Made by a program: the position numbers
Part shown: positions 24,001 to 27,000 of the stretch, piece after piece
Numbering within the stretch: position 1 is the stretch's first letter
How the letters are laid out: each line of letters begins with the position of its first letter
DNA from: a virus
Taxonomy: Duplodnaviria > Heunggongvirae > Uroviricota > Caudoviricetes
IMG/VR virus record: IMGVR_UViG_2529293138_000012
Location: 1-40,322 of that record
Direction: 5' to 3' (one strand)
DNA: 40,322 nt

Positions 24001-27000
24001 TTAGTATTAATGTCAGCAGCAAAAGCACAATCTAAAATAGCACTAAAAATAAAAATAAGACCTGCAACGCAATTAAAATTACTCATACAATAACCTCATC
24101 TTAAAATATACATTTAATAGCATGCATCTTATTTTATATAATTAACCACTCATCTCACATAAAATCGACACATTAACATACTATTCTTTAAAATATTATT
24201 TCAACGCACTCTAACCATGTTAATTTCAAAATTATCAGTATTCTTAGTATTAAGTATAACGAATTTGTCACTCCCACTTTTATATGATGTTGACAAAACA
24301 AGCCGATCATCATAGCGAGCAAGAACATAATACCAGACACTCTCATAGTGTAGCATCTGATATTCATTCTTAAACTGAGGCTTATACCAACCGGCAATAA
24401 GTGAAAATCCCCAGAAATAGATCATAAATCCGGCCATCATACACTCAATCAAGTGATGACGAATAAAAGATACTTCCGAAAAACATTTGACTAAAATAAG
24501 TCTTCTTCCTGACCTGACAAAAATCGACATGATTAATGCAGCAATAACACATAAAACCAGTGCATCTAGCACAACATGCCGATGAATTACAGAAAACTCC
24601 AGAGCAGGAGAAACCAAAAGCAGCAATATCGCCAGAAAAAGTCTGATAAAACTCAGATCCTGCACATTATTTCTTTGTTTGATCCCCAAGAAAAAAACAA
24701 CACCAGTACCCCATCCAATCAGGAATATAACAATGACTGTAACAGCATAAAAAAGGCTTCTGGCCACATCATCTACGCCAGCACCAACAACCCACCATGG
24801 AAAACCATAGTAAAAGGAAGTTCCCCAGCCATAGAAGTAAGCACTTCCCCACCCAAGACAGCCCATATAAGCAACAAAAAGTGAAGAGTTTCTGAGCAGA
24901 GCACTGTCATTCATAACCAATCCTCTAACAATTCAAGAACATTAACTTGTTTTACATAACAAATAAAATCCTATGTAGTCAAGAGACCTCATGCCAAGAG
25001 AAACTCATTACACAATCGCCATCAAATTTAATGTTCTGTGTCGTTTTCGAGCCTAAAAAATCAGCCTATTGGCAGGCTTAAGATGTGTGGCGAAGTAACC
25101 ACTATTCACCAAGTATTCGGTAGTTAAATAACTTGTGGAGTTCTCGTTTTTATACCGAAAAAATAAACGCTCATCCTTCAAATAGAGCGATTCATGATTT
25201 TTCTCAGAACTGAAACGGCATCGAGAAACTTGAAAACCGGGAGGAAATTATATCCAGACCAAATTTTGTTACCGCTACAGACAAAGGAGTTCAACAACTT
25301 GAGGAGATAATTGGTTACTACAAATTTAAGGAAGAAATCCACTGTGGTCTAAATGGCTGCAACCAACCACATCAAATGGGTTATATTGTAAAAACATCTG
25401 ACAGCATTTAAACTAACACCGGAAATAAATGTGGTAAAAACTAATCTGGTGTGGAATTTGGTGAAAACGTTCTTAGTTTCAATAAATTTATGCAACTCGA
25501 AACCAATAGAGAAATTATTAGTACCGCAAAAAGTAAATGTGAAGCGTGGCAAAAACATTGAAACAATACGAAAGATCAAACCTACAATAGATTATCTATC
25601 TTCTATTATAGAAAATAGTGTAAATTCCAATTACTCCTGAAGACTTGGTGCTACATAAATTCGTTTTTTGACCAAGAGCCAGATAGGTATTGTAACCCTT
25701 TCTGAAGTGGAAACTGATAAGAAGACCAAAACAATTATATTAGAAATGAATGAACACATGCGCGAGTCTGGAGAAGCAACAAGTGAATTCTACATAGGAA
25801 AAGTATCAGTTAATCATCTTCTTTTACCAGAAAACAATCTTCGTGATTTTTTTGTTGCGCTCAAAGAAGATCTAAAAAAATTCAGGCATTGAACTACAAA
25901 CAGCCCCAAGACCAGAAATTTCTGATTTTTTCAAAATTGTCAGTTCAATCAAAGAACGAATCAAACGATTAAAAAACTGAAACATGAAGCCAGTAAATTC
26001 CTAACTTAAAAAATATTGTCCCATCGAAAACAAAATAAAATACTCATCGACAGCTGATGAACTTGAATTCCATAATTTCGAACGCTTTTCAAACGGACTG
26101 AAATGATAGAAGCCCCAAAAAGGGGCTTCTATCAAAATCATTTACGTATTATTCCGCATTTTCATAAGCATACATGACAGATTCGGACAAAATCAAGTGC
26201 TATGTCTCAAAAAGCCTAAGTTTAGTTCACATCATCACCAAAACTTGTCACATTCTGAAAAGCAATATCGGCCTTACGCTCTTCCTGGTGGCAAATGTCA
26301 ACCAGAGAATCAAGAAACGGCTTCCAATTACGCGTCCATGTCCTGACGTGTAGCTCGGGTATCCGCTTCAGTACAACTTTATATACTGCGGTAGACGGTA
26401 CCGTGGAAAATCCATTTCCGCTGCAACGTTCGCAGATTTTAAACACTGGCACACCACGCTCGCTTGTGGCTTTGCGGTCGAGTACATCTCCCTTTCCACC
26501 ACAACGACACCTGGCACTTATCACTCCCTTCCCTTTACATACATCGCAAACGACTGCTACAACTTCCGTTACCTTTGTCCATTTCTCCCAGTCTGACGGT
26601 CGAACAGCGCGGGATCTACTGGCCCAATATGGCGCTTTACCACATGGGTATGAAACCTTACGAATGACCTGCTTACGGGTTGTTAGTCCGGTACCATTGC
26701 AACTATGGCATGTCGCGCTGGTAGCCGCCGATCGTGAATACTCAGCAAAGGCAAACTGCGCCAGTACCAGCATACACCAGCCAAATTCACCACCAGCTGC
26801 TTTACGCACATTCTTCGGTGCAATTTCCATCGCGTGACGCGCCAGCGCCTGGACTGCCATCTGTTCATCAGTCTTGCTAATACCGACCTTCCCGAAGAAG
26901 GCCGCCAGGCCAAACCGCTCACGATTGCTGGTGGTACCAATAGCCGCCATAACATCAGTACTAGTGAGACGCTCTGGCGAAGTTCCTTTTACATCGTTGC

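Follow-up and report, generated by a model that had tools for sequence, protein, structure and literature searches.

Membrane gene of the window

We examined a DNA stretch of 40,322 bp from a virus of the Caudoviricetes (IMG/VR record IMGVR_UViG_2529293138_000012, positions 1 to 40,322), referred to here as the window, and in particular a gene for a multi-pass membrane protein in its late region. Read along the minus strand from high to low coordinates, the locus holds the Q antiterminator gene, a 1.1-kb AT-rich spacer, a terminator, the membrane gene, a gene for a toxin B-like protein, the toxin A gene, a holin gene and a lysozyme gene, beyond which the remaining lambdoid late region follows. 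An initial annotation of the window had taken the membrane gene for the first gene of a toxin island, either as an accessory factor of the toxin or as an unrelated moron. The explanation that we favour, and hold to be likely, is that the gene lies outside the toxin insert, in the conserved segment that flanks it, and encodes a polytopic inner-membrane protein of the TfpB family, which probably serves the cell as a non-enzymatic binder.

The open reading frame (ORF) of 239 amino acids (aa) that had been reported at 24201-24920 is present, on the minus strand, in a form that opens at a TTG codon; the probable gene is shorter. An ATG at 24914..24912, two codons inside the TTG-started ORF, is the favoured start and gives a protein of 237 aa. 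As a ribosome binding site lies at this ATG, and as the full-length homologues, all of 236–238 aa, each start at the same methionine, the gene is written here as 24201..24914 on the minus strand, with the following features:

24201..24914, minus strand: coding sequence of the TfpB-family membrane protein (237 aa plus stop), called from the ORF, phrog_1521, PF27470 and the dN/dS ratio
24921..24925, minus strand: Shine-Dalgarno sequence GAGGA, 6 nt 5′ of the ATG, read directly from the sequence
24384..24884, minus strand: membrane region, residues 11-177, with five predicted transmembrane helices (hydropathy, charge pattern, AlphaFold2 and conservation)
24204..24383, minus strand: small C-terminal beta domain, residues 178-237 with strands at 184-235 (AlphaFold2 secondary structure and loop charges)

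The membrane gene is a genuine, selected gene, far beyond a chance ORF. The ratio of nonsynonymous to synonymous substitution rates (dN/dS) was 0.13-0.26 against ten homologues of 45-92% protein identity, indicating purifying selection; 120 homologues were found in a collection of 5.8 billion proteins, and the identical protein was recorded in 67 blocks of an assembly collection, including E. coli STEC_MHI813. Its GC content is 38.5%, against 49% for the window, and that of the family gene was 32-42% in all contexts examined. The region from about 22000 to 26200 has a GC content of 28-40%, down from about 49-50% around it.

Family assignment

By profile and domain matches, the membrane protein is a member of the already catalogued TfpB family (PF27470, PHROG 1521). 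It matched phrog_1521, of unknown function, with an E value of 1.7e-84 over 221 of the 222 profile positions, and PF27470 'TfpB' had been annotated beforehand on the exact protein and on all 120 homologues; scans of the protein against NCBIfam and against a Pfam release older than PF27470 gave no match. It is a small family: of 1.84 billion representative proteins searched with a profile, 71 were relatives, from Enterobacteriaceae, Pasteurellaceae, Neisseriaceae and Moraxella together with a few metagenomic sequences. The named database entries of the family are all 'hypothetical protein', 'membrane protein' or similar, and a literature search by its accessions and family identifiers found no paper. 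In recent literature 'TfpB' mostly denotes other things, such as a PilB-like ATPase of Acinetobacter baylyi or, as 'Tfpb', type IVb pili. Remote homology led to this uncharacterised family, and homology to an unrelated housekeeping family, which had also been contemplated, did not emerge.

The name of PF27470 comes from Moraxella, where a scan of one genome per species detected the family in M. bovis, M. lacunata, M. equi and M. oblonga. The M. bovis homologue, of 261 aa, is encoded on a contig of 1.9 kb, where a partial pilin C-terminus flanks it on either side, the two being on opposite strands; the window protein aligned with this homologue over its full length (residues 1-234) at 28% identity and E 3e-23. 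The two proteins are similar in length (237 and 261 aa) and share the N-terminal motif AY.YGWG...Y.GYPWW...ARSL and the C-terminal motif YYIL...IL. In M. lacunata a complete type IV pilin gene (PF00114 and N_methyl) is followed by a TfpB homologue shortened to 195 aa, a partial pilin on the other strand and a recombinase-like (Piv-like) ORF of 328 aa. We take the Moraxella locus to be the published tfpQ/tfpI-tfpB-piv pilin inversion region. Moraxella tfpB adjoins pilin genes and a Piv-like recombinase gene, whereas the window gene stands in a lambdoid late operon with no pilin nearby. The architecture of the family, namely about 230-260 aa, an aromatic- and glycine-rich N-terminal motif, multiple helices and a small C-terminal beta domain, is shared by the window protein. 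What the window carries is an unstudied, though very common, prophage gene, tied to the old Moraxella tfpB ORF, and we regard the family as one for experimentalists to take up.

Position in other prophages

To place the gene among phages, we surveyed 80 sampled IMG/VR contigs with a homologue. Wherever a contig includes the upstream sequence, the homologue shares its strand with Q and is the next gene, and the cargo on its 3′ side varies, including tRNAs, a methyltransferase gene and TciB/esterase genes. In APEC O1, STEC1585 and DG342-2 the order is Q, the membrane gene, and tRNAs or a DNA methyltransferase gene, then the holin gene where lysis genes are annotated. A large group of lambdoid prophages has the membrane gene in a conserved place, first behind Q and the terminator and ahead of a variable cargo slot. 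It is absent from two related late regions, including that of E. coli 2017-02-2CC, and one related prophage that lacks it has the same Q type.

The closest layout to compare is that of phage 434, in which a Q82-like gene is followed by a terminator, the homologue, TciB, a small membrane protein gene, a SASA esterase gene and the holin gene. The phage 434 homologue, CPT_434_68 ('putative membrane protein'), is 57% identical to the window protein over its full length, and, as in the window, it lies after Q and the terminator and ahead of cargo and a class II holin gene. The cargo of phage 434 consists of TciB, the small membrane protein and the SASA esterase, whereas that of the window is the toxin pair, and the window differs also in its Q, a 276-aa variant, and in the 1.1-kb AT-rich spacer between Q and the membrane gene.

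The suggestion that the gene is an unrelated moron fits these observations: it has a higher AT content than the phage, a place between Q and the lysis genes and many different cargoes behind it, and related phages lack it. Like the known morons of lambdoid late regions (stx, bor, lom and TciA/TciB), it stands between Q and the structural or lysis genes, is atypical in composition, is dispensable across related phages and encodes an envelope protein. Unlike them, it is fixed in first place after the Q terminator, with the true variable slot downstream of it, and no terminator was predicted on its 3′ side.

Separation from the toxin pair

The membrane gene and the toxin genes are co-directional, as had been stated, all being on the minus strand. 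The gene is nevertheless not the first of the toxin island. The toxin-free prophage of APEC O1 showed homology to window positions 25060-24203 (85%) and 22705-22469 (87%) and skipped 24202-22706, so that the toxin pair is a separate insert of 1.5 kb in the cargo slot. This toxin-specific insert, at about 22706..24202, starts after the stop codon of the membrane gene, which is left in the flanking conserved segment.

The frequencies of the two differ as well. Of 5426 complete E. coli genomes, 268 had DNA at least 80% identical to the membrane gene and 3 had the toxin pair; of the 80 IMG/VR contigs with a homologue, 79 had no toxin and one had a B-like toxin gene. The 110-aa B-like protein formed three clusters at 90% in the collection of 5.8 billion proteins, all from E. 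coli. In toxin lineages 1 and 2 the membrane gene is upstream of the toxin genes. Lineage 3, with a B protein of 64% identity (e.g. in 2017-02-2CC), has the order lambda-type Q, insertion sequence (IS) remnant, B, A and a pertussis-like toxin pair, and the membrane gene was not found in it by tblastn. Moreover, in the complete genome of RM8082 the membrane gene has an internal stop and adjoins an intact toxin. The toxin does not need the membrane gene. When co-occurrence was checked, gene and toxin did occur together in lineages 1 and 2, which is explained by their physical adjacency, with neither needing the other; the outcome is largely one of no link.

This is a clean negative, which leaves the 1.5-kb B-A pair alone as the toxin unit of the window prophage and makes the membrane gene unfit as a member or a marker of a virulence island.

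Two observations concern the toxins themselves. The order of the pair is unusual, in that the B-like gene precedes that of the A subunit; the 110-aa B-like protein had no Pfam, NCBIfam or PADLOC match, and its N-terminus resembles a signal peptide. In 2017-02-2CC (NZ_AP027764.1, about 4229448-4232108) the B-A pair is followed by genes for a pertussis S1/scabin-like ADP-ribosyltransferase and a subtilase-family AB5 binding subunit, which places two AB5-type toxins within one prophage cargo slot.

Protein architecture and conservation

Both structural features that had been read from the protein, several aromatic-rich hydrophobic segments and a soluble C-terminal domain, were recovered. Kyte-Doolittle hydropathy and AlphaFold2 together predicted five membrane helices, at about residues 4-36, 47-78, 89-111, 116-135 and 155-181, in a protein with 8.4% F, 5.9% Y and 3.4% W, and AlphaFold2 predicted a five-stranded beta domain at residues 184-235. 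The model used (pLDDT 79.7, pTM 0.71) was built from an alignment that included distant relatives; an earlier one from 32 close homologues only was poor (pLDDT 61.8). The most basic loops of the membrane protein are those at 78-91 and 134-154, which should be cytoplasmic by the positive-inside rule. This would put the N-terminus inside and make the tip of the hairpin between the first and second transmembrane helices (TM1 and TM2), as well as the C-terminal domain, face the periplasm.

The top conserved motif, G21-W-G-S-A-Y-F-Y-G-W-G..YYGFPWW..DDVARS, extends from TM1 through the first periplasmic turn into the beginning of TM2, and a WYYVLARY / LxLS motif is conserved in the C-terminal beta domain. 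Over 47 diverse members, the only near-invariant positions are A15, A25, Y26, G37, P39, G175 and Y195, and no acidic, basic or nucleophilic residue is shared throughout the family. TM1 carries a ladder of small residues (G21, A25, G29, S33 and G37) with an aromatic ladder beside it (W22, Y26 and W30), a pattern that suits tight helix packing or the binding of a hydrophobic partner. An enzymatic role, in the modification of lipopolysaccharide or lipid, was considered and rejected, and the protein read as a non-enzyme, because no polar residue is conserved across the TfpB family.

Structure comparison was uninformative. The best Foldseek match in the PDB had an E value of 0.22, with local MscS-like and SH3-like matches at TM-scores of at most 0.2, and the best match among the viral structures of BFVD had an E value of 0.05 over 66 columns. 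A profile search of the PDB sequences with the membrane protein gave 0 matches.

Homologues outside phages

The porcine enterotoxigenic E. coli (ETEC) plasmid pUMNK88_Ent (17903-20630) carries an intact homologue of 237 aa and 77.5% identity, 866 bp from eltA of the heat-labile enterotoxin I (LT-I) pair eltAB and divergent from it. In pU90-4 the homologue is frameshifted beside an intact eltAB. Among complete E. coli genomes, the complete 866-bp spacer was found in 12 of the 61 matching plasmids and never in a chromosome; the other matching plasmids listed, mostly human, have about the first 253 bp of the spacer only, on the eltA side. Homology between the plasmid copy and the window begins only 49 bp upstream of the start codon. 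Identity to the window gene is 77.5% for the plasmid copy and 82-87% for toxin-free prophage copies, so that the plasmid copy is not the closer one, and the adjacencies in the prophage and on the LT-I plasmids were not inherited as a single unit. On the simplest view, toxin genes of the heat-labile enterotoxin (LT) family would have landed, or been picked up, in prophage late regions, where the membrane gene is common. The LT-I locus may carry a remnant of a prophage late region, and the intact copy by eltAB on porcine ETEC plasmids is a hint that this locus was once within one.

A further plasmid homologue, of 238 aa and 59% identity, was detected in 106 records of Shigella virulence plasmids and is apparently intact in most; in the one record examined, Shigella boydii pBS512_211, it lies at 136556-137272 between IS elements. 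In Pasteurellaceae and Neisseriaceae the homologues are single genes amid housekeeping genes, sometimes in two or more copies per genome, with neighbours such as a phosphotransferase system gene, tsaD, an SMC-family gene and ftsK, a GTP cyclohydrolase II gene and a lactate/malate dehydrogenase gene. In Glaesserella parasuis (5974-9017) an orphan TfpB-family gene is convergent to an ORF with a CdtA/C domain, with two more ORFs on the strand of the latter. These two could be the rest of a cdt operon, and the toxin neighbourhood may well be due to chance.

Proposed function and alternative explanations

Under the favoured explanation, the protein would span the cytoplasmic membrane with five helices, its N-terminus being inside, and would expose to the periplasm the aromatic- and glycine-rich tip of the TM1-TM2 hairpin and the small C-terminal beta domain. 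With these it would bind or block a target on the periplasmic side of the inner membrane, most likely without being an enzyme. Its gene would be transcribed strongly as part of the late operon once the prophage is induced, and perhaps weakly in lysogens; standing always first behind the late terminator, the gene is a good candidate for low expression in lysogens and strong expression on induction. The benefit would be to the cell and not to phage lysis, since homologues persist as single genes without phage. Our best guess, a tentative one, is envelope protection or exclusion directed against incoming phage or membrane-active toxins, and it fits the company in the cargo slot, where TciB is a 'tellurite/colicin resistance protein'.

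Several points weigh against this explanation. No annotated relative and no experiment assigns the family a role, and in PADLOC the only match was AbiC, which was insignificant (E 0.0077, 13.8 bits, over the membrane helix region). A protective or exclusion role is drawn solely from the topology, the absent catalytic residues and the company in the cargo slot, and is possible at best. Fragments and pseudogenes of the membrane gene are common, which suggests weak selection in many lysogens. The porcine eltAB is a second case of adjacency to LT-family genes and may make coincidence doubtful; and the membrane gene is probably co-transcribed with the toxin genes after induction, because no terminator was predicted between them in a terminator scan.

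The last two points belong to the view that the gene is a dedicated toxin accessory, acting in export, assembly, release or protection of the producer and forming one functional island with B and A. It lies 114 bp 5′ of the toxin genes on the same strand, precedes the toxin in two of its three lineages, with three different Q modules, and has an intact homologue by eltAB on porcine LT-I plasmids. Against this stand the frequencies given above, the gene being widespread without the toxin, together with the third toxin lineage that has no copy and the pseudogene and frameshifted copies beside intact toxin genes in RM8082 and pU90-4. The human LT-I plasmids, moreover, have at most 253 bp of the spacer, all on the eltA side and none beside the gene, in keeping with 26 plasmid places for the gene against 64 for toxin A-like DNA. 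Both toxin subunits have N-termini that resemble Sec signals, and, to our knowledge, LT-family toxins require no bacterial immunity protein, as their target is the eukaryotic Gs-alpha. A dedicated accessory role, which the initial annotation had put forward, is not supported, and we consider it extremely improbable. A late lytic function, such as tuning of holin timing or of membrane integrity before lysis, would agree with the constant first place after Q, with the shared direction with the lysis genes, with the inner-membrane location, as of holins and antiholins, and with the presence of a homologue in the viable phage 434. It is, however, at odds with the intact phage-free homologues on Shigella and ETEC plasmids and in Pasteurellaceae and Neisseriaceae, with related prophages that lack the gene, one of them with the same Q type, with the variable cargo between gene and holin, and with the lack of similarity to holin or lysis families in Pfam and PHROG. 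A lysis role was rejected because homologues are kept outside phages, and we hold it to be very unlikely.

The name of the family raises another alternative, that the protein binds pilin-like or pseudopilin subunits and modulates a type IV pilus, a competence pilus or the type II secretion system, whereby it would keep out other phages or DNA or adjust secretion. The full-length homology to Moraxella TfpB, encoded directly 3′ of an expressed pilin gene, speaks for it, as does a distant member two genes from an N_methyl (prepilin-type) gene. The non-enteric hosts of the family, Moraxella, Neisseriaceae and Pasteurellaceae, are mostly piliated and naturally competent. Yet a gene with a pilin-like N-terminus was present at the Moraxella loci only and at none of the enteric, Pasteurellaceae or Neisseriaceae loci examined; the window genes around the membrane gene are all of phage or toxin type, M. 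lacunata tfpB is shortened to 195 aa, and type IV pili of the E. coli K-12 type are largely silent. The general layout is also that of the pilin binders TfpY and FimB (PMC11841053), to which the protein is apparently unrelated in sequence. These accessory proteins bind pilins and promote pilus assembly, and in the TfpY type the membrane part has three helices and the periplasmic part a mixed beta-sheet and an antiparallel beta-sheet (PMC11841053). Like TfpY, TfpZ, TfpX and FimB of Pseudomonas aeruginosa and Dichelobacter nodosus, the window protein has about 235-245 aa, no enzyme motifs and, by prediction, a short cytoplasmic N-terminus, several N-terminal helices and a periplasmic C-terminus, where a helix leads into a three-stranded antiparallel sheet in those proteins (PMC11841053), and Moraxella TfpB occupies the equivalent slot 3′ of a pilin gene. 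It differs in having five helices and one small beta domain, against the three helices and extra mixed sheet of TfpY (PMC11841053). If the widespread TfpY family were detectably related to the TfpB family, far more than the 71 relatives among 1.84 billion proteins would be expected. Taken together, a pilin partner is unlikely in our view. In a variant of this idea, TfpB proteins would be portable partners of type IV filaments, the prophage copy acting on the type II secretion pseudopilus or on type IV pili and travelling with AB5 toxins as a facultative modulator of secretion or exclusion. Toxins of the LT family are exported from the cell by the type II secretion system. Such portability would account for the LT-family adjacency in two arrangements, the co-directional B-A pair and the divergent eltAB; we nonetheless consider this variant highly improbable.

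Neighbouring genes and control elements

The other features of the locus are as follows:

26222..27052, minus strand: Q antiterminator gene, 276 aa, PF03589, the late-transcription switch (Pfam and PHROG matches)
25079..26221, plus strand: AT-rich spacer of 1.1 kb between Q and the terminator (ORF scan and comparison with relatives)
25055..25078, minus strand: intrinsic terminator AGCCTGCCAATAGGCT plus T run, probable tR′ (terminator scan and alignment)
24955..24985, minus strand: conserved non-coding promoter-like stretch CTCTTGAC..N..ATTTGTTATG (alignments)
23754..24086, minus strand: gene for the B-like secreted protein of the toxin pair, 110 aa, a neighbour (ORF call and protein clusters)
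22944..23735, minus strand: gene for an ADP-ribosyltransferase A subunit similar to those of LT and cholera toxin, 263 aa, a neighbour (PF01375, E 1.7e-102)
22473..22688, minus strand: gene for a P21-type class II holin, which opens the lysis cassette and bounds the cargo slot on its downstream side (PF04971, E 3.6e-35)

The spacer at 25079..26221 matched a region that holds an opposite-strand hypothetical gene of 245-306 aa in 15 other E. coli genomes. In the window it has short ORFs only, e.g. one of 74 aa at 25668-25892 on the plus strand, and it is probably a decayed gene or pseudogene. The terminator that follows has homologues in other prophages and in phage 434, in each case behind a late promoter of the Q82 type; that of phage 434 is annotated. 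Genes of the Q82 type end with a good promoter (TTGCAA, 17 nt, TATACT/TATATT), and this promoter and the terminator are read as the probable late promoter and late terminator.

The stretch at 24955..24985 is the best-conserved non-coding sequence 5′ of the gene, above its flanks, with at least 90% conservation in 57 unique upstream sequences, and it is invariant in 5 divergent loci. It resembles a promoter, with TTGACT at -35, 18 nt and an extended TGnTATGTA, of which the -10 element is poor. If the TGTTATGTA motif acts as an autonomous promoter, the transcript would start about 7 nt downstream, at about 24950.

The tRNA scan of the window found nothing, and Rfam gave nothing near the membrane gene. 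An AT-rich ORF of 113 aa at 22038-22379 on the plus strand, between the holin and lysozyme genes, matched phrog_1853 (unknown function) with an E value of 2.4e-35 and is probably a further small moron within the lysis cassette. Away from the locus, at 31167-31724 on the minus strand, Rfam detected two tandem sets of C4 antisense RNA and isrK, and one c4-a1b1 target element, all above the gathering score; by these matches the region is a P1/P7-type antirepressor control region, duplicated in the window prophage.

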